Shown here in pieces: positions 1-16,618 of a stretch of DNA of 26,134 bases. This DNA comes from a virus. Each line of letters starts with the position of its first letter. Within the stretch, counting starts at the first letter, position 1. Under the pieces are notes generated by a model. That model had not been told where the DNA came from, made no database searches, and saw only the letters and a list, made by a program, of their open reading frames with translations. Both the position numbers and the translations under genes were made by a program. Location: UHGV virus genome UHGV-1624389. The stretch is one strand, 5' to 3'.

Positions 1-763
1 CCGTAGCCTGCCCTGTCTGCCTGATATACATCGGACGGTAACGGGCAATAAATGCGTCTTCTGTGCGGGCCCGCAGCGCGGTGGTGGTGGCCTCACCGAA
101 ATCATCGTCGTTTCCGGCACGCTGCCCCGCCACCTGGTAAACAGAAAACCGCTCCCGGATACTCTTCTCCGTATCGCAGGAAAGGATGTTTTCCCCGAGT
201 ACCAGCGCGGTATGTGCCCGTGTTGAGCCAATACCGCCAATCACCAGCCTGCCGTGCGGGTCGTCGTAAGCCAGCGCCTGCTGCTGACCGAGTATTTTGT
301 TGATCACCTCGATCACCGTTTCACCGTGATCAGGCTGGACATCAGGAATAACACCCGACGGCGCACCACTGTTCACCACCTCAATGCCGAAAGGCGCAGC
401 AAGCGCCTGCGCAATCTGTACCAGCGATCGTCCGTTAAACTGTGTCGGTTTGGCTGCACAGTCAATCAGGTCAGCGGTCAGACTACGTCCGGCAATACCG
501 GTGCTGACCGAACGGGCATCGTAACGAACGGGCGTCGCCTCCACCCAGCCAGTGATCACCAGCTCATCACCAATCAGCACTTCCACTTTTGAACCGTTTT
601 TAATGCGCGGCTGAAGCGTGGTGATACCCTCATCTCCCGGCCACTGGCGGGTGATCTCCACACTGAAATCCCGCGCCAGTCGTTCAACACCGGCACCGAT
701 GCGCACCGATGTCCAGCCATTCCACTCCCGGCCATTTACCCGTAGCGTGACGTTATCGTTCAT
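1..763 (-). CDS. Phage baseplate/tail protein, Mu gpP / P2 gpD-like; N-terminal part only, 3' end runs off the window
   Basis: Minus-strand ATG at 763..761 overlaps the stop of the upstream N-like gene (ATGA). Hand translation gives MNDNVTLRVNGREWNGWTSVRIGAGVERLARDF... with no stop to position 1. Plus-strand ORFs 52-812 look like antisense artefacts. Family call is from gene order and memory only. Confidence 0.55.
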   Translation of the reverse strand, partial: MNDNVTLRVNGREWNGWTSVRIGAGVERLARDFSVEITRQWPGDEGITTLQPRIKNGSKVEVLIGDELVITGWVEATPVRYDARSVSTGIAGRSLTADLIDCAAKPTQFNGRSLVQIAQALAAPFGIEVVNSGAPSGVIPDVQPDHGETVIEVINKILGQQQALAYDDPHGRLVIGGIGSTRAHTALVLGENILSCDTEKSIRERFSVYQVAGQRAGNDDDFGEATTTALRARTEDAFIARYRPMYIRQTGQAT

Positions 764-2088
764 TGCACTGGCACCTTCAGAGGGATCACCGGCACAAAGC
801 CGGGATGCGTAATGGCATTACGCCGGATAATGTCCCCGTCACGCGCCGCGTTATCAAACCAGGTCGCCGCCAGCACCAGCGCGGGTAAAACCTCATCCGG
901 TGTGCGCTGAATGATCCGTGCAGACTGTTCAAGGCGCGTGTTGATATCCGCATTCAGATCTGCTTTCACCCGGCGCAGCGCCAGAAACAGCGCATCACTG
1001 GTTGTACGGGACAACTCCTTATCAATTGCCGTATTCAGTGTGTCGCGAATGTCGGTCAGTTCTTCCCACGTCGGCAGGTCAACCGTGTTTTTCACCGCCG
1101 GTGCATTGTTCAGTGCCGGATGCGTGACGGAAGGCCAGCAAGTGCTCTGCGCAGGTGTTGTTGCCTGCCCCACTGCGGCATTCTGCATCACCGCGGAAGT
1201 TGTTAGCGCAGGCAATCGGGTGACGGCATACGCCGCTTCGCTGATTGCGGTCGTACGAAGGGTGCTGGCAACCACGTTACGCTGCTGCGTCGCCGTGGCG
1301 GTGGTTTTACTGTCCGTTTTCCAGACGCCGCGCGGTTGCAGATCGCTGCCGAGGCTGACACCGGAAAGCGTTTTGATCATGGTGACCAGGTCGCTGGCGT
1401 TACCATAAAGGCGTTTCCCAGTACGCCACATTTTCTGCACCTGCTCAACGAAATTTTTGCCTGACGATGGCGGCGGCAGAAGTACCGAGATATCCCCCTG
1501 CAACAGCCTGGCGGCATCCGATACGGCAGAATCCACCACTTTCATCGCATCAGAAACATACCCCAGCATTATGCTGGCATTACCGATAACGTCGTTCTGC
1601 ACGAAATCCGCCACACCATCGATACTGAAACCGCTGAAGCTGTCACTGATGCAGTCATCCAGTGCAGAACAGGATGACATCAGCGTCTGCGCCGTCGCCG
1701 CACCTGATGTGGGGTAAGAGAGTTCTCCCGCTTCGACAAACTTCAGGTCAAAGCGGACAATACGCCCTTCACTCTTCGATGTGCTGACCCGAACCTCTCC
1801 GTCAACACAGACTTTCAGCTCACCGTAAGTCGGATGGACAAGCGTGCCGGGACCGGGTTTATTCAGCGCGTCAATCAGGCGATCGCGCTGGTCAAAGCAG
1901 TCATCTCCCACCACATAAGCCGTGATGGACGGGCGGAAAGTGATTTTCCCCAGGTCTTCGGTATAGGGCTTGTCGCGGTTCGGGTATTCATGTGTTTCCA
2001 CACGACGACCGGTTCCCGCACTTTCTTCTTCAACCTTAAACGGCACACCGCGAAATGACGCGTCCTGAAGTCTGTCTTTCCACGTCAT
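760..2088 (-). CDS. Phage DNA circulation protein (Mu N-like)
   Basis: 442-aa ORF starting MTWKDRLQDASFRGVPF, sitting directly downstream of the tape measure as in Mu-like tail modules. Family assignment from memory. Confidence 0.6.
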   Translation of the reverse strand: MTWKDRLQDASFRGVPFKVEEESAGTGRRVETHEYPNRDKPYTEDLGKITFRPSITAYVVGDDCFDQRDRLIDALNKPGPGTLVHPTYGELKVCVDGEVRVSTSKSEGRIVRFDLKFVEAGELSYPTSGAATAQTLMSSCSALDDCISDSFSGFSIDGVADFVQNDVIGNASIMLGYVSDAMKVVDSAVSDAARLLQGDISVLLPPPSSGKNFVEQVQKMWRTGKRLYGNASDLVTMIKTLSGVSLGSDLQPRGVWKTDSKTTATATQQRNVVASTLRTTAISEAAYAVTRLPALTTSAVMQNAAVGQATTPAQSTCWPSVTHPALNNAPAVKNTVDLPTWEELTDIRDTLNTAIDKELSRTTSDALFLALRRVKADLNADINTRLEQSARIIQRTPDEVLPALVLAATWFDNAARDGDIIRRNAITHPGFVPVIPLKVPVQ

Positions 2089-2100
2089 ATATACTCCGAA

Positions 2101-2131
2101 AATTAAAAAGCCACCTATTAGAAGGTGGCCT
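2101..2131 (-). terminator. Intrinsic terminator after the AT-rich tail-cluster insert
   Basis: Read on the minus strand: stem GCCACCT (rc of 2123-2129), 6-nt loop, AGGTGGC (rc of 2110-2116), then TTTTTAATT. It lies between the insert's stop (2150) and the N-like start (2088). Confidence 0.6.
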
Positions 2132-2149
2132 TGTAATGAATTTTATTAA

Positions 2150-2680
2150 TTAGCGAGTCAGAAACAACGAATCTTTATACTTTTGCTGTTGTTCATTTAA
2201 ATACTTAGCTGTTTCATCGCTGGCAAATGGAAATATTACCGTATTTTTAGGCATGGTAATTTCTTTTTTGTCCAGCGTCAGAGTAAACATAGGAACATAC
2301 TGAGCAGAGTAACGCACCGCAGAAACGAGCTCTAGTTTAGACTCTTCAATAACACTTAAATTATCCAGGCTAACTTTCTCTTCATCTTTTTTCTTTGACG
2401 CATTTAAAGTTTTTATTACTTTATTTAATTTCTCCTGAAAATCCTCCTTAAAGTTTTCAGGATTGCCGTCGACAACAAGAATCTGTTCACCCTGATTATC
2501 TGGAAAAATAATCTTTGCACTTATCAATTTATTTTCTTTATAAACATCACCAAGTTTTATGGCTCCTCCAGATAACTGAATAATATGTTCATCTTTAAAG
2601 GAGATGTTGCCAGAGATTATGAGAGATGAAAAAACAGCCGCTGCTCCAAGAATTACACTTGCTGTGATATAGCCTTTCAT
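2150..2680 (-). CDS. Hypothetical signal-anchored or secreted protein; AT-rich cargo gene inside the tail cluster
   Basis: 176-aa ORF with hydrophobic N-terminus MKGYITASVILGAAAVFSSLIISG and a Lys/Glu-rich remainder. Visibly AT-rich compared with flanking tail genes (not computed). Has its own AT-rich upstream spacer (2681-2771) and downstream terminator. Confidence 0.55.
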   Translation of the reverse strand: MKGYITASVILGAAAVFSSLIISGNISFKDEHIIQLSGGAIKLGDVYKENKLISAKIIFPDNQGEQILVVDGNPENFKEDFQEKLNKVIKTLNASKKKDEEKVSLDNLSVIEESKLELVSAVRYSAQYVPMFTLTLDKKEITMPKNTVIFPFASDETAKYLNEQQQKYKDSLFLTR

Positions 2681-2771
2681 TTTTCGCCTATTAACATTTT
2701 TCTAAATGTGCATTAATTCTATCACTCTATTTATGACTTACAACCAGCAATACCTGTGAGGGGAATCCTGG

Positions 2772-4604
2772 CTACCAAAATCGGGTATAGCCAACATCGT
2801 GATTTATATCAATGCCACTGGAGCGTGTTTCCGTAACCCGCATACCTGGTGGCATATTTATAAATGATACCTTGATCTCACCATCAACTTTTGGCGCAGA
2901 AGCTTTGTTAATCATGAAGGGATTCGGGCCTGTGGCATCGGAGGCGTTGTTTGACTGAGCCAGATCTACCGCCGGATAAGGTGTGTATCCCCGCGCCGGT
3001 ATTCCCGTCCCATAAGCATCATAAGCACCCGCGCCCCACTGCGCAGAGTTAATGGCATCGACCGTGTCACCGGAACTGTCGGTAAACCACTCAATAATTG
3101 GCTTCAGCTTATCCCACATATCCTGAAACCACTTAACAACCGGTCCCCAGTTTTTGATCACCATCCCCAGCGGCGACCAGGCAAAAACCTTCTTCAGAAG
3201 TTCCCAGCCAGCCTCAAAATAAGGACCAATGGTTTCCCAGAGCTTCTTGAAATAAGGTCCGACAACATCCCAGTTAGTGATAATTAATCCCGCAGCCAGA
3301 GCAATCGCCGTCGCAATCATGCCAATCGGCGTCATCGACATAATCCTGCTGACAATACTGATGGCACTGCCCACGCCCATCAATCCCAGTTTCAGAATCG
3401 CAAGACCGGCAGCAAGCCCGACGACGCCGCGAATAACCCGGGGATTTTCATCCGCAAACTTCGTGAATTTCTCCCCCAACTCCCCCAGCCACTGCGTGAT
3501 ATTTTTGGCGTCACCAGAAAATGCGCCGCCAATAGCTGCAAGACCGTTAGTTGCGGTCCCCGTCATTGCCTCCCACAGGTTGGACAGCGTACCAAGCTGA
3601 GCCTGAACACGTTTATTCAGGCTGGCCTGTTTATTCATCTTCTGCTGGATCTGATCGTAGCCATCCTTTCCTTTATCGATTAGTGCATTGACCACCTGAA
3701 GGGTTTCGGCATCATCACCAAATATTGCCTTAAGTACGCCTGTTCGCTTAACGTCGGTCAGTTTTCGCAGCTTTGCCAGTTGCCTGAACATGTTATCAAG
3801 ACCGCCAAAACTCCCTTTGCCGTCAGTAAAATCGAGCTGTACCCCGAGTTTCTGGCGGGCCATGATTTTATTGACGTCCCTGATTTTCTTAACGCTTAAT
3901 CCGGACTGGATAACTTTTCGCAGGGCGTTACCTGCCGACTCCCCGTTCATCCCCATCTGATCCATCATGACGCTGATGGGGGCAAGGCTCTGTGCAGCCT
4001 GAAGACCGTCCTTGTTCACCATCTTCAGAACAGAGCTGGTTTTAGTGAAGAAGGACAACATGTTGGTATCGTCAACGCCCAGATAAAACGCCTTCTGGAT
4101 AGTGTCGAACAGCCCCATCATGTCTTTTGACGCCGTTCCGGTAGCATCCTGCATCTTTGCGGCAAACTCGGCAGCCGCTTCCGGTGTTTTTTTCAGTTGT
4201 ACCGCAAGATAAGCTGTCGCTTTACCCACACCGCCAAGAATGTTTTCTGCCGGGATCCCCTGACGCACCAGCATCTGCATCATGTTCTGGAAATCAGCCG
4301 TTGTACCGGGTAGCTGATTACCCAGGCCAATAGCCAGTTTATTGATGTCCTGAAAGCTCTTTCCAACCTCGCCGTTCGCATCCATCATGGCGACTTTCAG
4401 CCCGGTGGCGGCGTTTTCCTGATCGGCATAAGATTTCAGGGAAAGCGTCAGACCCGCTGCCAGTCCGCCTCCAAGCGCCAGCCCACCCTGTGACGCTTCT
4501 TCCGCCTGGCGTTTAAATCCCCGGATTTTCTTTTGCATTTTCGACAGCGCGGGAGAAAGCCTGTCGACACCGGTGATCAACGCCTTAAGCTCAAATTCCG
4601 CCAT
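2772..4604 (-). CDS. Tail tape measure protein
   Basis: 610-aa ORF, Ala/Gly-rich with a hydrophobic block (LAAGLAILKLGLMGVGSAISIV), located after the tail assembly chaperone and before the N-like gene. Confidence 0.8.
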   Translation of the reverse strand: MAEFELKALITGVDRLSPALSKMQKKIRGFKRQAEEASQGGLALGGGLAAGLTLSLKSYADQENAATGLKVAMMDANGEVGKSFQDINKLAIGLGNQLPGTTADFQNMMQMLVRQGIPAENILGGVGKATAYLAVQLKKTPEAAAEFAAKMQDATGTASKDMMGLFDTIQKAFYLGVDDTNMLSFFTKTSSVLKMVNKDGLQAAQSLAPISVMMDQMGMNGESAGNALRKVIQSGLSVKKIRDVNKIMARQKLGVQLDFTDGKGSFGGLDNMFRQLAKLRKLTDVKRTGVLKAIFGDDAETLQVVNALIDKGKDGYDQIQQKMNKQASLNKRVQAQLGTLSNLWEAMTGTATNGLAAIGGAFSGDAKNITQWLGELGEKFTKFADENPRVIRGVVGLAAGLAILKLGLMGVGSAISIVSRIMSMTPIGMIATAIALAAGLIITNWDVVGPYFKKLWETIGPYFEAGWELLKKVFAWSPLGMVIKNWGPVVKWFQDMWDKLKPIIEWFTDSSGDTVDAINSAQWGAGAYDAYGTGIPARGYTPYPAVDLAQSNNASDATGPNPFMINKASAPKVDGEIKVSFINMPPGMRVTETRSSGIDINHDVGYTRFW

Positions 4605-5015
4605 GTGCGCGTTTCTCCTGCTCTATCCTGTTTGCCTGACTGACCAGCAAGGGAATTTCACTGATCGGCATATTCAGCAATTCGAAGGGATTAATGCGCC
4701 AGTAGCTGGCGCAGTCAAAGAAGCGATCAGTGAGGTATTCAGCCGTCAGGCCTGGAGGAAAAAACCAGCCACAAGCCACGCCGCTGCATTCAGGTCTGCC
4801 GGAGACATCTGGTCGACAGAGCTTTGCGGCACTTTCGCCAGCCGCACAATGTATTTCGATACAACATGCGCCAGAAGTCTGACGGACTCATCCTGATTCA
4901 TCTGGTAGGGATACCCCAGCTCGCGGACATCTTTCCCGGTGGGCTCATCAAACTCCAGTACGGAGAGTGTCTCGCCATGAGCGGTAATCGGTTTCTTTAA
5001 CTCAAGCTCTTTCAT
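4591..5015 (-). CDS. Tail assembly chaperone, -1 frameshift-extended product (GT-like)
   Basis: Minus strand reads GCT GGT TTT TTC CTC CAG GCC TGA in frame 0. The -1 frame is open from the slippery T_TTT_TTC (rc of 4758-4764) to 4591, giving ...GWFFPPGLTAEYLTDRFFDC..., and overlaps the tape-measure start at 4604. This matches the conserved chaperone frameshift of dsDNA phage tails. Confidence 0.5.
4746..5015 (-). CDS. Tail assembly chaperone, zero-frame product (G-like)
   Basis: 89-aa ORF between tail tube and tape measure. Ends ...AGFFLQA just after a TTTTTTC slippery run. Confidence 0.6.
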   Translation of the reverse strand: MKELELKKPITAHGETLSVLEFDEPTGKDVRELGYPYQMNQDESVRLLAHVVSKYIVRLAKVPQSSVDQMSPADLNAAAWLVAGFFLQA

Positions 5016-5371
5016 TACTGGTAATCCCCTTCTTCACCGTGGAACTCAAGATCAACCGTGCCTTCTTCGGCATTATGGTTCGCTTCGCCGTGCAGCCAGG
5101 CTGACGACAATACATAGACCTGACCGTTCGCCAGCTCAGCAGTGATGGTCATCTCATCAGACGAGGTGATTTTGCTCACCGGAAAATTCTTCGGCACCTT
5201 GAAGGTCCCTTTGACATAAGGCGCACGGTGAGTTTCCTTGCGGTCCACTGAACCGTCCAGGCCGATGATGTCATCATTGACCGTCCTGTTCATGGGCACC
5301 TCAATGCCGCCGGTCAGCGATAGCTGCTGACCGTCAATTTTGAAATAACAGGTTCCCCCGATACGGGCCAT
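5015..5371 (-). CDS. Contractile tail tube protein
   Basis: 118-aa ORF immediately downstream of the sheath gene (shares ATGA-type junction at 5371). Size and position are typical of myovirus tube proteins. Confidence 0.7.
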   Translation of the reverse strand: MARIGGTCYFKIDGQQLSLTGGIEVPMNRTVNDDIIGLDGSVDRKETHRAPYVKGTFKVPKNFPVSKITSSDEMTITAELANGQVYVLSSAWLHGEANHNAEEGTVDLEFHGEEGDYQ

Positions 5372-6867
5372 TATGCAGACTCCTCTGAATACTGAAGACG
5401 GAACTGGTTAACCACGGCAAAAACACGCAACTGGTTAACATAGTCAGGCGGGAACAGCGTGTTCAGGCGGTTCGGATCGCTGGCATCACGCTCCACAACC
5501 AGGTACTGCTTAAACAGTTCGTAGTTTTCCACGATCCCCGCACGCTCAAGCTGACGGTAGGTTGCCAGCAGTTCCCCTTTGATTACCGCCGGGGTGACAA
5601 TCGCCTGACCGGGACCAAAGCGGGTACCGTCGCTGGCAAGCTTGTGACGCCCGTACTTACTGGTAATGACGGATTTCAGTTTGCGCAGTACATACGCACT
5701 GGTATGCAGCGTCTCGCTGTCGAGGTAGCTGTTATCCGCAACCCCGTAAGAATTTTTCCTGTACGTGGTGACATCACGCTGAATGCGCAGCACCCCGCTT
5801 TCGACATACGCCGTTGCCACGCCATGAGACAACAGGGTCTGCTGCTCGGTCATCGTGAACCGTTTCCCCTTCGGCGCAGGCAGCATACCCACCAGCTCAC
5901 CGGTCTGCGTGGGACGTGCCGGATCGTTGCGGATAAACACCGCTGCGCGGGCGGTACGGCTTGCCGCCAGCTCGTCGGCAGGCGTCTGGGTCTCTTTTTC
6001 GTACCCCGCCAGGGTAATGTGCTGCTGGTTAAACTGGTCACCAGCGGTCACCAGTTCTGACAGCGTGCCGATCTTTGCCGTATACACATGACCGTACAGC
6101 TGACGCGCATAGCTCCAGCGACCGCTGGTATCGTTCATCTCGGTCACCAGCGTGTTAACGGAGGCCGTGTCGTTGAACGGCAGGCCGATATAATCAAACG
6201 GCTCATCCGCCATTGCAGCCACCGCGCCGGTGAGAACCGGAGCACCCGTTCCGGCGGTACCCGTCGCCACGGCAATCTGTACGCCCGCTGGCAGCACTTC
6301 GCCCCCACCAAAGCCGTAGTAATTGAGGCTGACAGGAATTTCATTCCCGCAAAGCCCCTTATGACGCGCGGTCAGTGTGACCACGCCTGCCGAAGATGAA
6401 GCCGTAAACGGCAGGGTCGGAACGGCATTGATGGCATCCTGGATACTGCTGGCAATCATCGTGACGTTATCGCCGTTAGTCACCGGTGCCTGCACGCGGG
6501 TACGTCCCACATACACATTCACCGTGCCGGTTTCGGTTGCCGCCCCGGTCACCGTCAGCGTAACCGTTGCCGCCGCGCCTGTGGATTCAGGAACGGCAAT
6601 CACATACAGCTCGCCAAACGGGTCAGTCTGGCGATAAGCCTCGACCATACGCGCCAGCTGACTTCCCGCACCACAAATCTGGCGTGCATAGTCTGCCGAC
6701 GACATCAGTACCAGACTGTTGGCAACAATCTCTGCACCGTTATTGGCATGACCAATCAGCAGCGATGCTCCGCTGTCCTGTGCAGTATTCGCCGCCTGGT
6801 TATCCATTTCCGCATAAAACAGCGGAACCAGCGTATTCGACGGAATGGTGTTAAAGCTTATCGTCAT
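5371..6867 (-). CDS. Contractile tail sheath protein
   Basis: 498-aa ORF, MTISFNTIPSNTLVPLFYAEMDN..., size and position match Mu L / P2 FI-type sheath proteins. Confidence 0.8.
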   Translation of the reverse strand: MTISFNTIPSNTLVPLFYAEMDNQAANTAQDSGASLLIGHANNGAEIVANSLVLMSSADYARQICGAGSQLARMVEAYRQTDPFGELYVIAVPESTGAAATVTLTVTGAATETGTVNVYVGRTRVQAPVTNGDNVTMIASSIQDAINAVPTLPFTASSSAGVVTLTARHKGLCGNEIPVSLNYYGFGGGEVLPAGVQIAVATGTAGTGAPVLTGAVAAMADEPFDYIGLPFNDTASVNTLVTEMNDTSGRWSYARQLYGHVYTAKIGTLSELVTAGDQFNQQHITLAGYEKETQTPADELAASRTARAAVFIRNDPARPTQTGELVGMLPAPKGKRFTMTEQQTLLSHGVATAYVESGVLRIQRDVTTYRKNSYGVADNSYLDSETLHTSAYVLRKLKSVITSKYGRHKLASDGTRFGPGQAIVTPAVIKGELLATYRQLERAGIVENYELFKQYLVVERDASDPNRLNTLFPPDYVNQLRVFAVVNQFRLQYSEESA

Positions 6868-7021
6868 CGGTGTTCACCTTTTTATTCACGCGCCGGATAT
6901 CACCCGCTGCTTCACGGCGCAGCCAGTAGTTGTTCTCGTCAACATTTCGCCCTTCGACGGGCAAAAGGTCACCGCGGGCAGGGTCAGGCACTGACCGCCC
7001 TTTAACAGGTTTCACAAACAT
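6851..7021 (-). CDS. Small conserved phage protein (Mu gp38 / DUF2635-like), absent from the ORF track
   Basis: Hand translation of minus strand from ATG 7021..7019: MFVKPVKGRSVPDPARGDLLPVEGRNVDENNYWLRREAAGDIRRVNKKVNTDDDKL, stop at 6853..6851. Overlaps the sheath start by 17 nt in another frame. Family name from memory. Confidence 0.45.
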   Translation of the reverse strand: MFVKPVKGRSVPDPARGDLLPVEGRNVDENNYWLRREAAGDIRRVNKKVNTDDDKL

Positions 7022-7029
7022 GAAGATTC

Positions 7030-7590
7030 TCAGGAAGGAAGGGTTATTTCGGTGTGATGTTCGATATCGCCGTCAGGCCCGTTACCGGGCTCGAGATAAT
7101 CAACATCAATCGCCAGCGTTTGCAGTTCATCCAGACTGTTCAGATCATCCTGCTGGCGGGTATCGTCTTCAGTCAGCTCGCTGATGACCGAAAAATCGAA
7201 CTGATAAATCAGCTCATGACGATTCAGATCCAGCAGCGTGCCGCCGTCATAGGTAATCGGGTTACCGCACGCTTCCGGGTTCCAGCCCAGCAGGGCCTTA
7301 AAGAGCATCTGCCGGACATCGTCCACCACATCATACGAGGCAAACTGACCGCGCTCATCACGCCCGTTACTCAGTATGACAACCACGGAGAAGCCCTCTT
7401 TCAGCTCCTGCCAGTAGTCGGTCTGGCTTTTGTTTTCTCCCGGAGAGTCATCACCCGGTACCACATACGCCGCCGGGAGTCTCAGCTTTCCGACCTCCGG
7501 CAGATTTTTGAACTGTGCCGCGCCTGCCACCCGGTTTTCAAAATACGGGCAGCGGGCACGCAGCGCAGCAATAACAGGCGTCAGTTTCAT
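7030..7590 (-). CDS. Hypothetical virion/tail-associated protein
   Basis: 186-aa acidic ORF between head-tail joining genes and the sheath. No motif recognised. Confidence 0.45.
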   Translation of the reverse strand: MKLTPVIAALRARCPYFENRVAGAAQFKNLPEVGKLRLPAAYVVPGDDSPGENKSQTDYWQELKEGFSVVVILSNGRDERGQFASYDVVDDVRQMLFKALLGWNPEACGNPITYDGGTLLDLNRHELIYQFDFSVISELTEDDTRQQDDLNSLDELQTLAIDVDYLEPGNGPDGDIEHHTEITLPS

Positions 7591-8093
7591 CTGTGTCGTC
7601 TCTCCGGCTTCAGTGATTTACGCAATTCCCGCGCCAGAAAATAGCGTGTCCAGCTGCGGTTCTTTTCAAGAGTTTCCACCATGAAGTTATTACGTGGAGC
7701 CAGTCGCCAGCCGCTGCCACCGGATGCACCACGATGATGACTACGACGACGTTTTGCTCCTCCCCGGACACCAAAAAACAGAAACGCCGGATAGAAGTCA
7801 CCAGAGATCATCCGGTTCCCCTTCCCGTTGCGCTGGTTAGGGGCAATGCGTGTCATAAAACCGGCTCGCTTTTTACTGGCTCTCGGCACCATATAACCAA
7901 TCGAACGAGCCAGGCGTCCGGTCTGATAACCGGGGTTTTCACCCGGTGCCGACCGCGCACGGCGCATCACCAGCCGACGGGCATCACGCATATGACGCTG
8001 CCCAATCGTGACAAACGCCCTCCGGACACGGGCGCGGTTAAAGCGCATCTCGGCGGGCTGCTGAACATCAACGTGAAAAAAGGGAGTCGCCAT
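7587..8093 (-). CDS. Putative virion morphogenesis / tail completion protein
   Basis: 168-aa strongly basic ORF (Arg-rich), overlapping neighbours by ATGA-type junctions. Position matches Mu G / HK97 gp10-like genes. Function is inferred from position. Confidence 0.45.
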   Translation of the reverse strand: MATPFFHVDVQQPAEMRFNRARVRRAFVTIGQRHMRDARRLVMRRARSAPGENPGYQTGRLARSIGYMVPRASKKRAGFMTRIAPNQRNGKGNRMISGDFYPAFLFFGVRGGAKRRRSHHRGASGGSGWRLAPRNNFMVETLEKNRSWTRYFLARELRKSLKPERRHR

Positions 8094-8798: not shown

Positions 8799-8800
8799 AC

Positions 8801-9001
8801 TCAGCCCTCTTTACTGGTCGTGGCTTTTTTCTCTTTTGTCGCTTTACTGCTTTTTGCACTGGTTCCGCGCTCTGCTAACCCGGCCTGAAGTGCAATCTCC
8901 TGCACCCGGGCAGGAAGCGCCCCGTCGTCATACTCACCGGCCCGAATGACCTCAACACGCATACCGTCCGGTGACCATTTCAGATCTTGTTTCAGGATCA
9001 T
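8801..9001 (-). CDS. Small hypothetical head-associated protein
   Basis: 66-aa ORF with a Lys/Ser/Thr-rich tail, directly downstream of the major capsid gene. Confidence 0.35.
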   Translation of the reverse strand: MILKQDLKWSPDGMRVEVIRAGEYDDGALPARVQEIALQAGLAERGTSAKSSKATKEKKATTSKEG

Positions 9002-9023
9002 GATTCTTCACCCGTCAGAACAG

Positions 9024-9043
9024 GGGGCGCGGTTCCGCGCCCC
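9024..9043 (-). promoter_or_regulatory. GC-rich stem-loop just 3' of the major capsid gene
   Basis: Arms GGGGCGCG (9024-9031) and CGCGCCCC (9036-9043) around loop GTTC. No U-tract follows on the coding strand, so this is not a classical terminator. Confidence 0.4.
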
Positions 9044-9050
9044 TGAGTGA

Positions 9051-10256
9051 TTACGCCGCTGCAATCTTCAGCAGTTTGATGGCCTGCGAATCGACCAGCA
9101 TCCCGCCGGTGCGCTTGGTGGTATAAAAACCGACAAACGGTTTATTGGTGTACGGGTCACGCAGAATGCGGGTGCCGATACGGTCAACGATGGTGTAACC
9201 CCGTTTGAAGTTACCAAATGCAATGGCTTTCGCATCAGCGGCGATATCCGGCATCTGTTCGTTTTCAGCGATACCGTAACCCGCCAGAGAGGACGGCTGC
9301 CCCAGTTCCAGCCCCGGACGCCACAGATAGTTACCCTCGGTGTCTTTCAGCAGACGTATGGCAAACAGGCTGTTGTTGTTCATCATGAACTTCGCGCCAG
9401 TGCGGTGTGCCTTACGCAGCGTGTAAATCAGTTTGATAATGGCGTCTGCGGTCACCGCGGTCGCTTCGCCGGATACAATATGCTGAAGTTTGCCGAACGC
9501 CCGGACCTTGTCGGTTTCATCAGTGGATTCATACGCCAGGAACCCTTTCGGCTTCTTGGTGCCATTGCCTGAGGTAAAGGCAATTTCTTCCTGTTCGGCA
9601 AATTCGGTTGCCAGCTCGCTGTTGATCCAGGCCTCCACGTTGAAGAAGGCATCGTCCAGCATTTTCTGGGTAGCCTGCGGGTTGCCGTAGATTTCCCCCA
9701 TGAGAGGTTCAATCAGCTCCAGTCTGGAGGTGGCAGTCTGGGATCGCGTATCCGTTTCCCCCACCCATCCGGAAGCCGTACCGCCCAGATTCACCAGTTT
9801 TTTGTAGTCGGAACCGCCAACGGTGATCACCGTGGCTTCCTGACGCATCACCACTTCATCTTTCAGCAGGTTAAGAATGTTGCGATCCAGTTCTTCCGGC
9901 ACGGCGTAGCCACCGTCTTCATCGGTACCCACCTGCAATGCCTTACGCTCCAGATCGCGCAGACCGTCTTCACGGCCTTTACGCAGGAAGCCCACAAACG
10001 CCTCTTTATGCTCGGTGGCCAGTTTATTTTGCGCTCCACCTGCCGGACGTTTCAGCTCAAGCAGCTCTTTTTCAAGGTCGCTTTTGAGATTTTCCAGCTC
10101 GCTGAGTTTCCCGTTCAGGGTTTCCACCTGCCCGGCAAGCTTGCCTTTTTCCTGCTCAATCGCATCCACGCGCTTGTCGTTCTTTGCTTTGAAGTCGTCA
10201 AACTTCTGCTGCAGCTCCTGCGCGACCTGTTCGACATCTTTAATATCAACCGCCAT
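9051..10256 (-). CDS. Major capsid protein, HK97-type
   Basis: 401 aa with a coiled-coil-like N-terminal region (KLSELENLKSDLEKELLELK), positioned after the prohead protease and portal as in HK97-type head modules. Confidence 0.8.
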   Translation of the reverse strand: MAVDIKDVEQVAQELQQKFDDFKAKNDKRVDAIEQEKGKLAGQVETLNGKLSELENLKSDLEKELLELKRPAGGAQNKLATEHKEAFVGFLRKGREDGLRDLERKALQVGTDEDGGYAVPEELDRNILNLLKDEVVMRQEATVITVGGSDYKKLVNLGGTASGWVGETDTRSQTATSRLELIEPLMGEIYGNPQATQKMLDDAFFNVEAWINSELATEFAEQEEIAFTSGNGTKKPKGFLAYESTDETDKVRAFGKLQHIVSGEATAVTADAIIKLIYTLRKAHRTGAKFMMNNNSLFAIRLLKDTEGNYLWRPGLELGQPSSLAGYGIAENEQMPDIAADAKAIAFGNFKRGYTIVDRIGTRILRDPYTNKPFVGFYTTKRTGGMLVDSQAIKLLKIAAA

Positions 10257-10270
10257 CGTATTTCTCCTGA

Positions 10271-10957
10271 TTAGAAGTTCAGATTTTTCAGTGCATTCAG
10301 TGCAGAGCCCACATCCTCAGCGTCGCGCAGGGACAGTGCGCCATAGCCCCCGGCCATGAATGCTTTGGCCTGGGTACGGGAGAGTCCGACATCACGCAGG
10401 ACTCTTTCGATTTTTTTCTGTTCGGGGATTTCCCCGCGGGCCAGTGCGTTCTTGACGTCGCTGATCCGCGCCTCGTCGTTAGACGGGAACGTCACCAGGC
10501 TGACTTCCCAGAGGTCGATTTCTTTCAGCAGAAAGGCTTCTTTGCTCCGGTCGTATTCCCAGTCTTTCAGGACGTACCCAATAGAAAGGCCGGTTAACGA
10601 ACCGGCCTTCATGTGTGCATGTGCGCGTTTTGCGAGGGGATCATCATCAATAAGCAACCGTCCCCTGACGTAAAGCCCGACATCGTCTTCCTTCATTTCG
10701 GTGTAAACACCGATGGGTTCATCCATGCGGTGCTGCCAGAGCAGCGCAGGTAACGCTTTTCTGTCACTCCACGCCCGCAGGGAAGCAGCAAATGCCCCGG
10801 ACATCACCACATCATCGTGGCTGTCCTTTACACCAAAGACGGAGCCATACCCTTCAAACTCACCGGAGTCACTGACAGATTTCAGACTCAGCGGTACATC
10901 AAGACGTTGTTTCGTCTGCATTGGCGTTATCCTTCTGCTTACCGGCTTTACTGCCAT
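10271..10957 (-). CDS. Prohead maturation protease (HK97 family)
   Basis: 228-aa ORF between portal and capsid; the true start may be the internal Met (MQTKQRL...). Overlaps the portal 3' end. Confidence 0.75.
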   Translation of the reverse strand: MAVKPVSRRITPMQTKQRLDVPLSLKSVSDSGEFEGYGSVFGVKDSHDDVVMSGAFAASLRAWSDRKALPALLWQHRMDEPIGVYTEMKEDDVGLYVRGRLLIDDDPLAKRAHAHMKAGSLTGLSIGYVLKDWEYDRSKEAFLLKEIDLWEVSLVTFPSNDEARISDVKNALARGEIPEQKKIERVLRDVGLSRTQAKAFMAGGYGALSLRDAEDVGSALNALKNLNF

Positions 10958-12140
10958 CGGAGGGTTTCGTGGTCATGTTCATCGGTGTGAGATAGACATC
11001 ACCACCGGGTCGTGGATTCATATCTTCCAGGTCGCGGCAGTCATTGGGAGAGTAAATTCCCCAGTTGATCCCGGTGGCGTAGGCTTCAAAACGGGACTTC
11101 ATATCCCCGCGCAGTAACGCCCCGGCGTTAAATTTGGCGTAATAAACGCCCTGCTTACTTTTTCGTACCAGTCCGGTGTTGATCCGCTGTTCGATGCGGG
11201 TCAGATACGGCACCAGTGAATAGTTGATAAATCCCAGCCCCAGCTCTTCGATATTGTTGAAGGTGGCGCGATCGGTGTTCTGCACCATGTGCAACGGCAC
11301 CCGGAACAGACGACAGATTTCTTCAAGCTGAAACTTGCGGGTTTCCAGGAACTGGCTGTCCTCGGCGTTCAGCGCCATCGACTTCCAGTCCAGCCCCATC
11401 TCAAGGATCATCGGGCGGTGAGCATTGCCAAGCCCGGTGTGACGCTCCTCAAAATCTTTCTTCAGGCGCTCATAAGCCTGATCTGACAGCGTCTGCTCTG
11501 TACGCAACACACCCGACGTCACCGCGCCATTGCTGAACAGTCTGGCCCCGTGCTCTTCGGTCGCTGCCGCCAGCGATATTGCCTCGCGGGCATAGGCGAT
11601 GGGATTCAGCCCCACCAGTCCGTCCAGCGTCAGCGTGCGCACATGCCAGATATCCTCCTGGCTCAGTACATCCGTGGAGCCATCCGGGAATGTGACCTGA
11701 TAGATCGGCTCCCAGCTACTGTTAAGCTTCGGTACCACACAGCCGGGATCGACGGGCAGCAGTTCAGCCACTTCGCCAAATGCTTTCACTTTGTAGGCGT
11801 AAAAGTTTCCCCGCAGGCACAGACAGGTGACCACCAGCTCCCAGAACTCCTGCGGCGTCATATAGCCATTGGGATGCGTGGAGATCAGCTTATGCAGACG
11901 CTCGCCGGTGGCTCTCTGTTTCAGGCTGCCGTTCAGGTGATACAGATTGCAGGGCAACATCCCGACCGACTCTGCCAGCACCCTGACACAGGAAAAAACC
12001 GCCGTCAGTCGCATGGCCCGCTGGCTGCTGATCTGCTTTCCGGTATAGGTGTCGTAGGACAACCCGATGGCATCCGCCAGCTCTGCTGGCGTGGTCACCG
12101 GTGCGTCACTTTTTCGTTGAAATAATCCCGAAAAGAACAC
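10899..12140 (-). CDS. Portal protein (HK97 family)
   Basis: 413 aa, immediately downstream of the large terminase, with an acidic Lys/Asp-rich C-terminus. Confidence 0.8.
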   Translation of the reverse strand: MFFSGLFQRKSDAPVTTPAELADAIGLSYDTYTGKQISSQRAMRLTAVFSCVRVLAESVGMLPCNLYHLNGSLKQRATGERLHKLISTHPNGYMTPQEFWELVVTCLCLRGNFYAYKVKAFGEVAELLPVDPGCVVPKLNSSWEPIYQVTFPDGSTDVLSQEDIWHVRTLTLDGLVGLNPIAYAREAISLAAATEEHGARLFSNGAVTSGVLRTEQTLSDQAYERLKKDFEERHTGLGNAHRPMILEMGLDWKSMALNAEDSQFLETRKFQLEEICRLFRVPLHMVQNTDRATFNNIEELGLGFINYSLVPYLTRIEQRINTGLVRKSKQGVYYAKFNAGALLRGDMKSRFEAYATGINWGIYSPNDCRDLEDMNPRPGGDVYLTPMNMTTKPSDGSKAGKQKDNANADETTS

Positions 12141-12322
12141 TATTTACCTCCACCAACAGACAGCTGTGTACGATCGAGATATCGCGCTACCAGCCACGAC
12201 CAGAACAGGCACAACGCCCCGGCAACAACAAACCCCGCCGGGGGATAAATCAGCCAGGCACCATACGCCAGCAAAAGCGCCCCCAGCACGCCCACCAGAG
12301 GCGCGAGAATCAGCATGATCAT
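12140..12322 (-). CDS. Small membrane protein (two predicted TM helices)
   Basis: 60 aa, [49 protein letters not shown], wedged between terminase and portal with overlapping junctions. Confidence 0.4.
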
Positions 12323-12333
12323 AATTACCTCAG

Positions 12334-14067
12334 TTAAAGCGAGCGGATCCCATAGGACTCAATGTGGTCAGACAGCGTGTCTTCTTTCTCGTACAGCATG
12401 GCTCTGCCAACCGCCATAATCAGCGCAACTGCACCGTCAATTTTGTTTTCCGCCTGCTCTTTGACGGGTTTCACCACATCATCGTTACCCGGAATGGTTT
12501 TGCCGACCACATTGCCGATACACCAGGTCATGATGGGATTGCCATCATGATGAAAGCGCCCCGATTCAATTGCCGCTTCCAGCTCTTTCATCGGGTCGGA
12601 CATGTTGGTGTAGTTCTGAATGATAGTGACGGGATTCAGGTCTTCATCAGCAAGGTCATGTGACAACCCGGTCGCCCCGAAGGGGTCGATGGGTGACTCA
12701 CTGACCGGGCTGATTTTGTTCGCCGCTTTGGCCTCCTCGAGGATGTAGCGATAATCCACCTCCGCACCATCGGTAACGGTCAGAACGCCCATTTCCACCC
12801 ATTTCTGAAAGCGTTCGGCTGTCCGGCGATCTTCATTTTTCTCGACGCTGTACACCGTGTCATACGGTACCCAGAAGCGCGGAGCCACACTGTAGTAATG
12901 CGTTTTACCGTCAATCTCGCGGGTATAAAGTCGCGCCATGCTGTTCATATCCAGCTTACGCGCCAGGTCAAAGGCCAGAATGCACGGTTGCCCCTCGAAC
13001 TGCTCAAGGGTCAGTGATTTATCCTCGCAGCTCTGCCAGCTCACCAGGTTGAAATACGCCGAACGCGCCGACACCCAGATATTGAGGTGTTTTGTTTTAA
13101 AGACGTTTGCCAGACGGGCGTTATTTTTCGCACGCTGCTGCTGACTTAACAAAAATTCGCGATAAACCGACACGCCAATATTCGGGTTAGCTTTTTCCAG
13201 CACCTGCGGGTCGGTCCAGTCATCGCCTTCGTCAACGGTATAGATGATCCCGAACAGTTCATCGTTGGGTACCGAACCGTTGAGCATCTCGATAACTTCC
13301 CGCCGCTTGTCGTAGCACGGCCCCTCAATGTTGTACCCGGCGGTGGTGATGGCCCACATCAGTGGCTGACGTCGCGCGCCCATCCCGGTAAGCATCGTGG
13401 TATAAAGCGCATCGGTGGCGTGCTCGTGATATTCATCCACCACGGCACAGTGGGGTGATGAACCATCACCGGGGTTACCGATCAGCGGTTCAAACCGCGC
13501 GCCATCCTCCGGACGGTTCATGTTTGAGGCGTTAACCTCAATCCCGAACGCTTCCGTCAGCATGGGTGTGCGTTTACACATCAGTCGCGCCGGGCGAAAG
13601 ACTTCCCACGCCTGTTTCTCTGTCGTGGCACCGGAATACACTTCCGCGCCAAACTCGTTATCACAGGCAAAACAATACAGGGCAACACCGGCAGAGATTG
13701 CCGATTTGCCGTTCTTACGGGGGATTTCGGTATACACCTCCCTGAAGCGGCGCAGCCGGGAGCCTTTATTGACCCAGCCAAACGCACAGCAGATCACAAA
13801 GAGCTGCCACGGTTCCAGCGTGATGGGCATCCTCTTGAATGCCCACTCCCCCTTGGTGTGTGGCAACAGCTGAATAAATTTCGCGGCCCGTTCAGCCAGG
13901 TCCTTGTCGAAGCGGTAACGAAACGACTTACTTTTTTCCGCCATCAGGTCATCAAGATGGCGCTGGCAGGCCTGAATCACAAACTGGCAGGCCACAATCT
14001 TTCCGCGCACGACATCACGGGCATACTGATTGGCAGCATTTACGTTGGGGTAAGATTTCCGGCTCAT
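12334..14067 (-). CDS. Terminase large subunit
   Basis: 577 aa with a Walker A-like stretch ([12 protein letters not shown]) and acidic nuclease-like C-terminal half. ATGA overlap with the small terminase gene. Confidence 0.9.
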
Positions 14068-14567
14068 GATTCGATGATTTTCAGAAACGGGTTAGTGGCT
14101 TTCTTCTGCCCCGCCAGGCCAATCAGACGCTGGCGGCTGCTGGGGTCGAGTCCGAGCATTGCCCCCGTGCTGCTCATCTCGGACTCCTGTTCTTTCTTGG
14201 CGGTCAGCTCCGGATTTTTGACCATGCCACCCATTGCACCGGTGATGGTGTTGCCCTGTCTGGCAATATTTTTCACGGCACGCCGCCAGAACTCGTAGGC
14301 CACGCACCACCGCTCAAGCACCGCGAGGTCAGTCACGCACAGCAGGCCCTGACCGCAGAGTTCTTTGGTTGTCAGTTGCCACATGATCGTGGCGAGAGGG
14401 AGATCTTCTTCAGCGAACCACTCCGGTGGCTCAACACCTTTGATGGGCGTAAAAACAGGTTCATCTTTATTCAGGGCTCGCTTGCCGGGGTTTCCGGCCA
14501 GCGCCTTGCGCGCCGTTGGCTTGGGGCGACGCCCGGAACGCCCCGCCGTTCCAGCCATATGCGGCAC
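14064..14567 (-). CDS. Terminase small subunit (P27-like)
   Basis: 167 aa with basic N-terminus [30 protein letters not shown], directly upstream of the large terminase. Confidence 0.75.
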
Positions 14568-14608
14568 TCCTGGTTAAATTTCATTTTTCGCGGGTATAAA
14601 AAAACGAT

Positions 14609-14657
14609 GGGGCGGGCAGTCCGGAAGACGTCAGGTCACAGAGATTTGACCCGCCCC
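14609..14657. repeat. GC-rich inverted repeat between the HNH and terS genes; candidate cos/packaging-site region
   Basis: GGGGCGGG (14609-14616) and CCCGCCCC (14650-14657) flank a nested GTCA...TGAC symmetry. Location matches cos sites of HNH-dependent HK97-like packaging modules. Confidence 0.35.
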
Positions 14658-14683
14658 TCCCCTCAGACAGTTGAGAATTATTA

Positions 14684-15034
14684 TCACTTTAGCCGTTCAC
14701 GGGCCGTCTTCGCCTTATGACACGGCCAGCACAGACTCTGCAGATTATTGTCGGCCTCAGTGCCGCCATGTGCTTTAGGGATGATGTGGTCAACGGTTTT
14801 CGCCTCACGCACCACACCGGCACGCAGACATAACTGACACAGGCCCTTGTCACGCTTCAGTACACGTTCACGGATAGCATCCCATTTCGAACCGTAGCCG
14901 CGCTGATGACGGGATTGTCCTGGCTTGTATTGCTTCCAGCCTTCGCTTTTGTGGCTTTCGCAGTAGCCTGACGGGTCTGTGGTGGTATGGCGGCAGCCAC
15001 GAACACGGCAGGCTTTTGGGATTCGTGGGGGCAT
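14684..15034 (-). CDS. HNH endonuclease (terminase-associated)
   Basis: 116 aa with Cys pairs and a DHIIPKAHGG...N...CWPCH motif, placed just upstream of terS. Confidence 0.85.
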   Translation of the reverse strand: MPPRIPKACRVRGCRHTTTDPSGYCESHKSEGWKQYKPGQSRHQRGYGSKWDAIRERVLKRDKGLCQLCLRAGVVREAKTVDHIIPKAHGGTEADNNLQSLCWPCHKAKTARERLK

Positions 15035-15060
15035 AAATATATTCCTGTTCTTTGTCCAGA

Positions 15061-15333
15061 TTATTTGCCTGCTGCCAGCAAAGCGTTATGGCGCATCTCG
15101 ATACTTCGAATCCCCGCTTTGTCAATATTGCATTGTCCCAACGCTGACAACAGACTCACATTCAACTCCAGACTGGCACCATACGTCAGCGGATTGGGTA
15201 TAAACGGTACAGGAGTATCAGAAGTCAGGCTGGCTGGCAGTGGTGCCACCGGAGCGCTCACGTAAACCGTCCGCGAATTTCCGCAACCTGTCAGCAGCGG
15301 CAGCAGGCACAGGACGTGAAGCACAATCATCAT
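15061..15333 (-). CDS. Outer-membrane spanin lipoprotein (Rz1-like)
   Basis: Starts at the internal Met MMIVLHVLCLLPLLTGC (lipobox LLTGC), begins inside Rz in another frame and extends past the Rz stop. Pro-rich mature part. Confidence 0.65.
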   Translation of the reverse strand: MMIVLHVLCLLPLLTGCGNSRTVYVSAPVAPLPASLTSDTPVPFIPNPLTYGASLELNVSLLSALGQCNIDKAGIRSIEMRHNALLAAGK

Positions 15334-15610
15334 CCGCAACAGCCACTTTGATATCTTCCTGGGTTCTCTGTGACTCCAGTGCGATCTGCTGTTTTGCATG
15401 CTGGTTAGCCTCTATAACTGTATTGATGATTTGCAGTGATTGCAGAACGTTACGGGTAATGGCAGTTGCTGATTCAGCATTTCGTACAGCCTCATCAGCA
15501 CGCTCCTTTTCGTGCTGATATTTGCTGTAGTAATGCCCGGTAGACCAGATGAAGGAACCAATGACGGTAACAAAGAAGGCAACAATAACCAGCTTATATC
15601 TCAGCTTCAT
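15218..15610 (-). CDS. Inner-membrane spanin (Rz-like)
   Basis: 130 aa with an N-terminal TM helix (LVIVAFFVTVIGSFIW) and a coiled-coil-like periplasmic domain, directly after the endolysin. Confidence 0.7.
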   Translation of the reverse strand: MKLRYKLVIVAFFVTVIGSFIWSTGHYYSKYQHEKERADEAVRNAESATAITRNVLQSLQIINTVIEANQHAKQQIALESQRTQEDIKVAVADDDCASRPVPAAAADRLRKFADGLRERSGGTTASQPDF

Positions 15611-16070
15611 TTACTTCCCCACCAGCCTCTTTAAATCGGGCAATCAGGTCGCCTATTTTATGTTCATACTGACCATAACCTGCACCAGGTAACGACGCCC
15701 AGATATTGCTGCAACGGTCGATTGCCTGACGAATATCACCGCGATCAATCATCGGTAAAGCGCCACGCTCCTTAATCTGCTGTAATGCCACTGAGTCCTG
15801 GCTTCTGGGAGAGAAGTCTTTCAGCCCAAGCTGCTTACGATAAGCATCCCACCAGCGTGAAAGAAGCTGATAGCGTCCAGCGGCTGTTGATTTAAGTTTT
15901 GGGTTTAGAGTGACAAGTTTACGAGGGTGATCGGAGTAATCAGTGAAGAGTTCACCACCGACAATAACATCATAACCGTGATTACGTGTCGGTTGTCGCC
16001 CGTTATCTGTTCCTTCTGACCAGGCCACCATATCCAGAAAAGCTTTACGCTGGGAATTTAGCACCTGCAT
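15594..16070 (-). CDS. R: Endolysin, lambda R-type lytic transglycosylase
   Basis: 158 aa, ...NQRKAFLDMVAWSEGTDNGRQPTRNHGYDVIVGGELFTDYSDHPRKLVTLNPKLKSTAAGRYQLLSRWWDAYRKQLGL..., which matches the lambda R sequence I remember along most of its length. Confidence 0.93.
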   Translation of the reverse strand: MQVLNSQRKAFLDMVAWSEGTDNGRQPTRNHGYDVIVGGELFTDYSDHPRKLVTLNPKLKSTAAGRYQLLSRWWDAYRKQLGLKDFSPRSQDSVALQQIKERGALPMIDRGDIRQAIDRCSNIWASLPGAGYGQYEHKIGDLIARFKEAGGEVNEAEI

Positions 16071-16073
16071 AAA

Positions 16074-16400
16074 TTACTCCTTAGAACCACCAAACTTATT
16101 ACCGATTACTCTCATTGCAGCCCCACGAATAGCATCGACCCCGATCAGCCCAACGCCACCACCAATGGCAACAGAAAGAGATTTAGGCCATCCGACATAC
16201 TCAAGAGCGGATGCAAAAGTCAGCGTCAGAGCACCACAGAGCAAAATCTCGAGCGTTTTTCGTTTCCAGCCACCACCACCGCCAAAATAGGCAATGCGCA
16301 AGCCAGCCATAACGATCGACATAATCACTGCGCCCAGCGGTGTGTCTCCACGCCACCAGCTCTGGAACAACTCCAGCCAGGTATTTGGGTTATGAGGCAT
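16074..16400 (-). CDS. S: Holin (lambda S family, three TM helices)
   Basis: 108 aa with three hydrophobic segments and a GAVIMSIVMAGLRIAYFGGG stretch that resembles lambda S (GAILAFAMAYLRGRYNGG) from memory. Sits immediately upstream of R. Confidence 0.8.
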   Translation of the reverse strand: MPHNPNTWLELFQSWWRGDTPLGAVIMSIVMAGLRIAYFGGGGGWKRKTLEILLCGALTLTFASALEYVGWPKSLSVAIGGGVGLIGVDAIRGAAMRVIGNKFGGSKE

Positions 16401-16575: not shown

Positions 16576-16618
16576 GCTGTGTGGCGAAGTAACCACTCTT
16601 AACACGATACAATAATTT

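Follow-up and report, generated by a model that had tools for sequence, protein, structure and literature searches.

This analysis concerns a stretch of 26,134 nucleotides (nt) from the virus genome UHGV-1624389, called the window as a whole, and within it positions 1-16400. We are nearly certain that these positions hold the late region of a temperate, cos-packaging, contractile-tailed prophage of the SfII/SfI/SfIV/SfV group, comprising lysis, packaging, head, neck and most of the tail; the K-12 remnants e14 and CPS-53 are counted among the relatives of this group. Coding on the minus strand is near-complete across the window, and all late genes in 1-16400 lie on that strand. Read from 16400 down to 1, they encode the holin, the endolysin, a spanin pair, an HNH endonuclease, TerS, TerL, a 60-amino-acid (aa) membrane protein, the portal, an S78 protease, the capsid and a 66-aa open reading frame (ORF). 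The series continues with the head-tail adaptor, head closure, neck protein, tail terminator, a DUF2635 protein, sheath, tube, chaperone, tape measure, a 176-aa gene, an N-like protein and the first 254 residues of a P-like protein. Gene content and order had been listed in the same way by a first-pass annotation made from the sequence alone, and Pfam and PHROGs searches confirm them. Pfam matches exceed the gathering threshold for all late genes except the endolysin, the neck protein, two tiny ORFs, the 176-aa gene and the i-spanin, whose DUF2570 match falls just under it. PHROGs assigns the endolysin, neck protein, i-spanin and holin, so that the two collections together cover every structural gene.

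The identification is carried by collinearity with phage SfII (NC_021857 / KC736978). SfII was aligned directly, while the archetypes HK97, Mu and lambda were compared by tblastn of every window protein. In the same order, positions 1-2112 and 2778-14683 match SfII at 97.5% nucleotide identity, and 14684-15044 and 15138-16643 at 89%. By block, protein identity to SfII is 98% in the tail, 99% in head and packaging, 95% in the connectors and 86% in lysis. Counting from the P-like hub to the holin, with insert 1 (described below) and the two spanins left out, 22 of 23 products are at least 94% identical to their SfII counterparts, and the HNH endonuclease is 92% identical. In a megablast search of a phage collection, vB_EcoM-689R6 (ON470584) spans 95% of 1-16400 at 96.4%, and SfII and SfI span 85% at 97.5-97.6%; the seemingly low SfII coverage arises because its linear record is opened at cos. 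SfV (NC_003444) matches at 92-97% nucleotide identity in the tail, neck, terS, most of terL, the lysis cassette and HNH (lysis and HNH 92%), and within 1-16400 its match is lacking only at the head block 8799-12395 and at insert 1.

The same element is common in Escherichia coli, as 535 of 5426 complete genomes hold at least 80% of window positions 1-25000. In the closest E. coli relatives the prophage lies at tRNA-Thr (thrW) beside proA, with no gtr genes annotated, the gtr serotype-conversion genes being a trait of the Shigella members; this locus is the published integration site of SfI, SfII, SfIV, SfV and SfX (PMC3636060). SfI has been described as a mosaic phage with myovirus (contractile-tail) morphology (PMC3636060), and the SfIV head proteins have been placed in the HK97 family, differing from those of SfV (PMC3851460). 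SfII is grouped in the literature with SfV and SfI and was isolated as infectious particles. Myovirus morphology, with an isometric head and a contractile tail, is on record for SfI (PMC3636060), SfIV (PMC3851460) and SfII; for the window we infer a contractile tail from the sheath and tube genes. A tRNA scan of the window returned zero genes, whereas SfI has two tRNAs after Q (PMC3636060).

The first-pass annotation had presented the region as a mosaic of HK97-type head and packaging, Mu-type tail and lambda-type lysis modules, with an implication of novelty, and had named whole-length collinearity with one known phage type as the outcome that would speak against its reading. This outcome was obtained, since collinear SfII coverage amounts to 95.4% of 1-16400 (identity range 89-97.6%). 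A gene-by-gene identity comparison separates the two sides of the claim: measured against the archetypes the mosaic is real (HK97 25-42%, Mu 36-43%), and the region is at the same time collinear with SfII at high identity. The same arrangement is collinear in SfII, SfI, SfIV, SfV and vB_EcoM-689R6, so the mosaic is not new. The mix of an HK97-like head with a Mu-like tail was already published for the SfV-type group about twenty years ago; the claim for SfV was reportedly made by Allison et al. in 2002/2003, and the SfV GenBank record itself notes the similarity of tail genes to Mu gp38, L, N, P and gp45-48. Identity to HK97 and Mu is only 25-43%, which marks these relationships as ancient. 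The likeness to HK97, Mu and lambda is an old, family-level homology of the whole phage group and does not stem from a recent recombination event.

We accordingly assign hardly any probability to the reading of the region as a novel three-way hybrid that arose in this genome only recently and whose joints are marked by the inserts. It could draw on the GC content, which differs by block (head and tail ~0.55-0.58, lysis 0.49, inserts 0.39-0.44), and on the shift of the best archetype match along the region. However, the same order and the same joints recur at 89-98% nucleotide identity in SfII, SfI, SfIV, SfV, 689R6 and hundreds of E. coli genomes, the archetype identities are far too low for a recent origin, and the inserts sit at neither the head-tail nor the lysis-packaging boundary. 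The recent hybrid is ruled out by the SfII collinearity.

Could the region instead be a decaying, non-functional prophage remnant similar to e14, and not a working virion module? We consider this unlikely. PGAP gene names derived from e14 and CPS-53 loci (ymfR, ymfQ, ymfL, yfdN), an insertion sequence (IS) of the IS3 family beside the immunity region and the position of the distal tail genes outside the window are consistent with it. Against this, none of the structural ORFs in 1-16400 is truncated, and each shares 92-100% identity with its counterpart in SfII, a phage with proven infectious particles. Intact, too, are the signal for the frameshift, the decamer at cos and the lipobox of the spanin. 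R-type tailocins (phage-tail-like bacteriocins) usually derive from Mu-like and P2-like tail clusters, and on this general ground the tail genes might represent a stand-alone tailocin. They form, however, one unbroken series with intact genes for the terminase, portal, protease, capsid and connectors, all in the same orientation, and their close relatives are complete phages, making a tailocin the least probable of the alternatives, with next to no chance of being correct.

Several points weigh against the assignment to a working prophage of the SfII group. The window ends within the P-like gene, leaving the remaining baseplate genes, the fibres, att, int and any gtr genes beyond the stretch. 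The IS3-family element, starting at ~25452 near the immunity region, makes the inducibility of the prophage uncertain. With SfII, the lysis block shares only ~89% identity and the spanins 67-77%; this segment has a history partly of its own. Finally, the two inserts occur together in no database record among the hits examined. Otherwise, no evidence contradicting the SfII-group identification was found.

The value of the analysis lies in a precise late-region map, which places cos, the frameshift in the chaperone gene and the overlap of the spanins and with which the window can be annotated confidently. It also shows exchangeable segments, namely the head block at 8799-12395 and three cargo slots (tape measure to N, Q to holin, HNH to spanins), and it flags two uncharacterised cargo loci as candidate prophage-encoded defence. 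As a discovery it carries little weight: the architecture is one already published, and it belongs to a family of enterobacterial prophages that is very common.

Exchangeable segments and cargo loci

Positions 8799-12395 (adaptor, 66-aa ORF, capsid, protease, portal, ymfR-like gene and the 3′ end of terL) are of the SfII/SfI/ST64B type. In SfV a divergent HK97-family set, 25-28% identical, takes its place, a clean cassette swap within the phage group. Head-tail breakpoints among the relatives fall at ~8363 (ST64B and 118970_sal3 share the head side only), at 8585 (SKA5 shares the tail side only) and at 8799 (SfV). All of them lie inside or at the ends of connector genes, and none carries an insert. 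The idea that the two inserts mark the junctions between modules did not hold: insert 1 lies inside the tail module, and insert 2 lies beyond 1-16400, between Q and the holin.

Insert 1 (2113-2777) separates the tape-measure gene from N within the Mu-like tail block, two genes that are adjacent in Mu. Its layout on the minus strand (2107-2777) comprises a promoter-like site with an extended -10 element (2743->2716), a 176-aa gene (2680->2150) and a terminator-like hairpin (2132->2107), and its GC content is ~0.39 as compared with ~0.55 in the neighbouring genes. These elements give it the classic layout of a moron. The 176-aa product has one N-terminal hydrophobic helix and belongs to phrog_5485, a family of unknown function, with no match in Pfam or PADLOC. 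Its structural model reaches a predicted local distance difference test (pLDDT) score of 67.6, and no PDB match better than E = 0.03 was found (kinesin noise). The insert is absent from SfII, SfV, 689R6 and the prophage of E. coli GPEC1189 and present in that of E. coli WS0115A; 179 of the 5426 E. coli genomes carry it, every time beside the tape-measure gene. The same slot holds a 52%-identical homologue in Leclercia prophages and an unrelated 170-aa gene in SKA5, which marks the position between tape measure and N as a cargo hotspot within the tail operon. A comparable placement is known for the HK97 gp15 moron, which adjoins the HK97 tape-measure gene.

A Leclercia prophage (L009 7013-8808) has two extra genes, encoding 503-aa and 94-aa proteins without Pfam matches, that separate its N-like gene from its P-like gene; the window has no gene at this place. 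The gap between N and P adds one more variable slot to the Mu-type tail module.

Insert 2 (16644-18277) is located between Q (18266-18622) and the holin gene, on the strand opposite to the late operon. It carries a gene pair (16639-18244, plus strand) encoding a soluble protein of 343-357 aa and a 179-aa membrane protein with about four hydrophobic segments, and this pair was found in only 14 of the 5426 E. coli genomes. The large protein has no match in Pfam or PADLOC; its homologues form 28 clusters, nearly all named ones from Enterobacterales. An AlphaFold model of this protein (mean pLDDT 72.6) gave lambda RexA (8twq) as its only significant PDB match, with E = 2.8e-5 and a probability of 0.99 at a low template-modelling (TM) score of 0.26-0.31, and weak matches to RdgC in a viral library. 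RexA, which is related to RdgC, has two domains, a hinge and a swivel loop. At the sequence level, BLASTP and hhalign comparisons of the large protein with lambda RexA and with SfII_50 returned nothing significant, and the small protein gave only a marginal pairwise E of 0.01 with RexB. The small multi-pass partner is adjacent, as in a Rex pair, and has 179 aa compared with 144 aa in RexB, with a similar number of about four hydrophobic segments.

The two genes are likewise paired in Providencia, Microbulbifer and Franconibacter, conserved with 36-65% identity. In Providencia the pair directly follows a cI-like repressor, which is the position of rexAB; in Microbulbifer it stands beside a helix-turn-helix pair, and in Franconibacter it occupies the slot between Q and holin. 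The pair may move between two prophage slots, one next to cI and the other between Q and holin. A Rex-like function is plausible but unproven. Taking both inserts together, we tentatively propose, while leaning towards doubt, that the insert-2 pair could be an uncharacterised, divergent abortive-infection or exclusion module of the RexA/RexB type and that the membrane-anchored insert-1 protein could act on incoming tails in superinfection exclusion, similar to HK97 gp15. A PADLOC search covering both inserts, DUF968, KilA-N and YmfR yielded nothing except one weak match of the KilA-N protein.

Packaging, head and tail genes

The intergenic region between HNH and terS (116 nt) contains the decamer TGCCCGCCCC at 14609-14618 on the minus strand, read directly from the sequence; the HNH gene lies 65 nt upstream of it and terS beyond. 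This decamer is identical to the experimentally determined 10-nt cohesive end of SfI (PMC3636060), and cleavage would be expected at the same 14609-14618 site here. In window coordinates the linear GenBank records end at 14625/14626 for SfV and 14683/14684 for SfII. The HNH endonuclease (14684-15034; Pfam HNH, 6.9e-16) is 42% identical to HK97 gp74 over 48 aa and occupies the same position. HK97 gp74 promotes terminase cleavage at cos (PMC9410871), and HNH genes adjoining cos and terminase are common (PMC3592412). The terS gene (14064-14558, P27/Terminase_4 family; Pfam Terminase_4, 2.4e-21) starts with an ATG at 14558 after AGGAG. The terL product (12334-14067) has the Pfam domains TerL_ATPase and TerL_nuclease and is 26% identical to HK97 gp2 over 522 aa.

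The gap between terL and portal is filled by a YmfR-like 60-aa membrane protein (12140-12322; phrog_502, 1.5e-27) with hydrophobic residues 1-49, named ymfR by PGAP. This gene is found in SfII and not in SfV, and PHROGs classes it as a moron/membrane protein. The portal (10899-12140; Pfam Phage_portal PF04860, 6e-108) shares 32% identity with HK97 gp3 over 377 aa. The prohead serine protease of the S78/HK97 gp4 family (10271-10957; Pfam Peptidase_S78 PF04586, 1.2e-31; HK97 gp4 36%) is named 'HK97 family phage prohead protease' by PGAP, and in relatives its start is annotated at the equivalent of 10921. It is followed by the HK97-family major capsid protein (9051-10256), in which Pfam Phage_capsid (PF05065, 9.8e-79) covers residues 115-398; identity is 25% to HK97 gp5 over 170 aa and 99.5% to SfII. 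The ~114 N-terminal residues preceding the domain are probably a scaffold-like delta domain. Portal, S78 protease and capsid thus occur together in the adjacent arrangement characteristic of the HK97 type (capsid, protease, portal along the window), with no ORF between the protease and capsid genes and no separate scaffold gene. Equivalents of the HK97 crosslink residues K169, N356 and E363 were sought in a three-sequence alignment, which is only 17-23% identical, and its columns were not assignable.

Downstream of the capsid gene lies a 66-aa protein (8801-9001; phrog_1020, function unknown), 100% identical to SfII_07 and with no SfV match. The neck and connector genes together span 7587-8798. 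They encode a head-tail adaptor of the HK97 gp6 family (8475-8798; Pfam Phage_connect_1, 5.7e-10), a head closure protein of the HK97 gp7 family (8068-8478; Pfam Phage_HCP, 2.5e-22), each sharing its Pfam family with the HK97 protein, and a neck/tail-completion protein (7587-8093), which has no Pfam match and belongs to phrog_879, 'tail completion or Neck1' (3.4e-95). The HK97-like label for head and packaging therefore stands at the family level, with 25-42% identity in five of seven genes, and fails for terS, which gave no tblastn match to HK97 gp1 at E 1e-3; HK97 gp1 itself is in no Pfam family.

The tail begins with a tail terminator (7030-7590; Pfam Phage_tail_terminator, 2e-26) and a small DUF2635 protein similar to Mu gp38 (6851-7021; 5.4e-16; 42% identity). 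The contractile sheath (5371-6867) has three sheath Pfam domains and is 36% identical to Mu L over its full length of 500 aa (E 5e-84). The tube (5015-5371; Pfam Tail_tube PF10618, 2.4e-33) is in the same family as Mu M, both proteins having 118 aa, and their pairwise BLAST comparison was not significant. The tail assembly chaperone (4746-5015; Pfam Phage_TAC_7, 1.9e-16) precedes the tape measure (2772-4604; Pfam PhageMin_Tail, 1.6e-26; SfII 98%). No BLAST match was found between the latter and Mu gp42, a member of Pfam TMP_3. The DNA-circulation protein similar to Mu N/gp43 (760-2088; Pfam DNA_circ_N, 6.6e-34) is 97.5% identical to SfII and 43% to Mu N, the latter over the N-terminal 89 aa only. 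The baseplate hub similar to Mu P/gp44 (1-763; Pfam GpP-like_1st, 4e-23, and Gp44-like_2nd, 5.6e-27) is 36% identical to Mu P over 255 aa and 99% to SfII; only its N-terminal 254 aa are present, as the gene runs past the window start. In the description of the tail as Mu-like, gene order, the sheath, P, N and gp38 similarities (36-43%) and the tube family are upheld, whereas the tape measure belongs to a different family.

Within the chaperone gene, a perfect slippery heptamer, T_TTT_TTC (TTTTTTC), lies in the zero frame at 4764->4758 on the minus strand, just ahead of the stop codon at 4748-4746. The -1 frame is open to 4591, as far as the tape-measure start, and the resulting ORF (4591-4779) is conserved in SfII and SfV at 97%; 689R6 annotates only a separate hypothetical protein at this place. 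A conserved chaperone frameshift is known from lambda G/GT and P2 E/E+E′, and we predict from the heptamer and the open frame that ORF 4591-4779 is the -1 frameshift continuation of the tail chaperone. Short overlapping ORFs had been placed at the module junctions; they turn out to be this extension, the nested o-spanin and, for the remainder, overlaps of 4 to 26 nt typical of translationally coupled late genes. The ten largest plus-strand ORFs over the structural genes match no Pfam family and were for this reason treated as antisense artefacts.

Lysis cassette and early region

The lysis genes were expected to be of the lambda type, and this label fits two of the four, the holin and the endolysin. 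The endolysin (15594-16070; phrog_90) is identical to lambda R at 88% and to HK97 gp71 at 89% over all 158 aa, which bears out the close resemblance to lambda R noticed earlier, and it is the sole lambda BLAST match among the window proteins compared. The holin (16074-16400; Pfam Phage_holin_3_1 PF05106, 6.6e-25) is a distant member of the lambda S family, with 24% identity and a pairwise E of 1e-6.

For neither spanin was there a tblastn match to lambda Rz or Rz1. The Rz-like i-spanin (15218-15610; phrog_214, 1.2e-46) has one N-terminal hydrophobic helix and is 31% identical to Mu gp23. The o-spanin, an Rz1/LysC-like lipoprotein (15061-15333; Pfam LysC, 8.5e-16) with the lipobox LLTGC, is 51% identical to an ORF overlapping the end of Mu gp23. 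Its start, at ~15333, falls within the i-spanin gene in the +1 frame, and it extends 157 nt beyond the i-spanin stop codon (15218), unlike lambda Rz1, which lies wholly within Rz. By family and layout, the two form an overlapped LysC/DUF2570 pair of the Mu/P2 type and not the embedded Rz/Rz1 pair of lambda. The spanins, which resemble Mu gp23 and the P2 LysC family, are less conserved relative to SfII (67-77%) than any other late genes, and they come directly after a lambda R-type endolysin.

A GC hairpin followed by a T run (16573->16552, minus strand), some 150 nt upstream of the holin gene, resembles a terminator, and its position suggests a tR′-like terminator for Q-dependent read-through. 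Only this hairpin and weak promoter-like sites were found when the interval between Q and holin was searched for a late promoter.

The early region is lambdoid, with cI, Cro, Q, RusA and Dam. Its immunity part (24179-25144) matches SfV, and the replication and nin genes (18278-24163) match SfII at 96% nucleotide identity, so that the early region is a recombinant between members of the group. The IS3-family element (~25452-26134), just beyond the cI region, contains rve integrase domains, and many E. coli genomes have dispersed copies of it that are 99-100% identical; its presence may bear on the inducibility of the prophage.

Extrapolating from well-studied homologues, we propose the following course of events. 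The Q-family antiterminator (18266-18622) would drive late transcription, first of the holin, endolysin and spanin genes and then of HNH, terS and terL. The terminase, together with the HNH protein as in HK97, would cut concatemers at the cos decamer and package the DNA through the portal. The capsid is expected to assemble with its own N-terminal region as scaffold, which the S78 protease would then remove. The HK97-type adaptor and head closure protein would link the head to a Mu-type contractile tail made of the terminator, the gp38-like protein, sheath, tube, a chaperone in two forms (through the -1 frameshift), tape measure, N and P, with further baseplate proteins encoded beyond the window start.

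Comparison with known phages

SfII, with SfI and SfIV, shares with the window the order from Q via lysis, HNH, cos, terS/terL, the ymfR-like gene, portal, protease, capsid and connectors through the Mu-like tail to N and P, at 97.5% nucleotide identity over head and tail and 98-99% at the amino acid level. It also has its own two-gene, reverse-oriented cargo between Q and holin (SfII_49 and SfII_50), which shows no detectable homology to the pair in the window. Further differences are the absence of insert 1 (45 nt in place of 665 nt), spanins that are only 67-77% identical, a Q that is 72% identical, and the immunity genes, those of the window matching SfV instead. SfV agrees with the window at 100% in cI and at 96% over the ORF that contains the Cro-like gene (24179-24682), but in place of 8799-12395 it carries a divergent HK97-family set (portal 28%, capsid 25%, protease without a BLAST match). 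The difference of SfV from its relatives in the head block was likewise reported for SfIV (PMC3851460). The phage vB_EcoM-689R6, close as it is over 1-16400, has other genes in the variable slots.

Two E. coli prophages each carry one of the inserts. That of GPEC1189 matches 2778-24159 at 98.1% and contains insert 2; that of WS0115A matches 1-15035 at 98.3% and contains insert 1. The latter differs in having a KAP-family NTPase in the slot between Q and holin (L004 27359-28690) and an extra hypothetical gene between HNH and spanins (L004 25085-25639), which identifies both positions as exchangeable cargo sites.

Lambda has the same order of Q, holin, endolysin, spanins, cos and terminase, with R 88% identical and the holin in the S family. 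Its spanins are embedded, whereas those of the window are overlapped and non-homologous by BLAST, and the window Q has no BLAST match to lambda Q. An HNH gene precedes cos in the window and is lacking in lambda (PMC9410871).

Mu differs in its head, as none of the seven head and packaging genes matches Mu by tblastn, and Mu-type transposition and regulatory genes are absent from the window. Its tape measure falls in another Pfam family, and the tube and chaperone are below BLAST detection. The tail genes follow one another exactly as in Mu (gp38, L, M, chaperone, tape measure, N, P), with 36% identity for the sheath, 36% for P, 43% for the N-terminal domain of N and 42% for gp38, and with the tube in the same Pfam family; the Mu spanin pair is also similar to that of the window.

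HK97 stands apart in its non-contractile, lambda-like tail and in terS, which has no detectable similarity, and the window possesses additional small genes (the ymfR-like gene and the 66-aa ORF). In five of the seven head and packaging genes identity to HK97 is 25-42%, and the two share the order HNH, cos, terS, terL, portal, S78 protease, capsid, gp6-like adaptor and gp7-like head closure.

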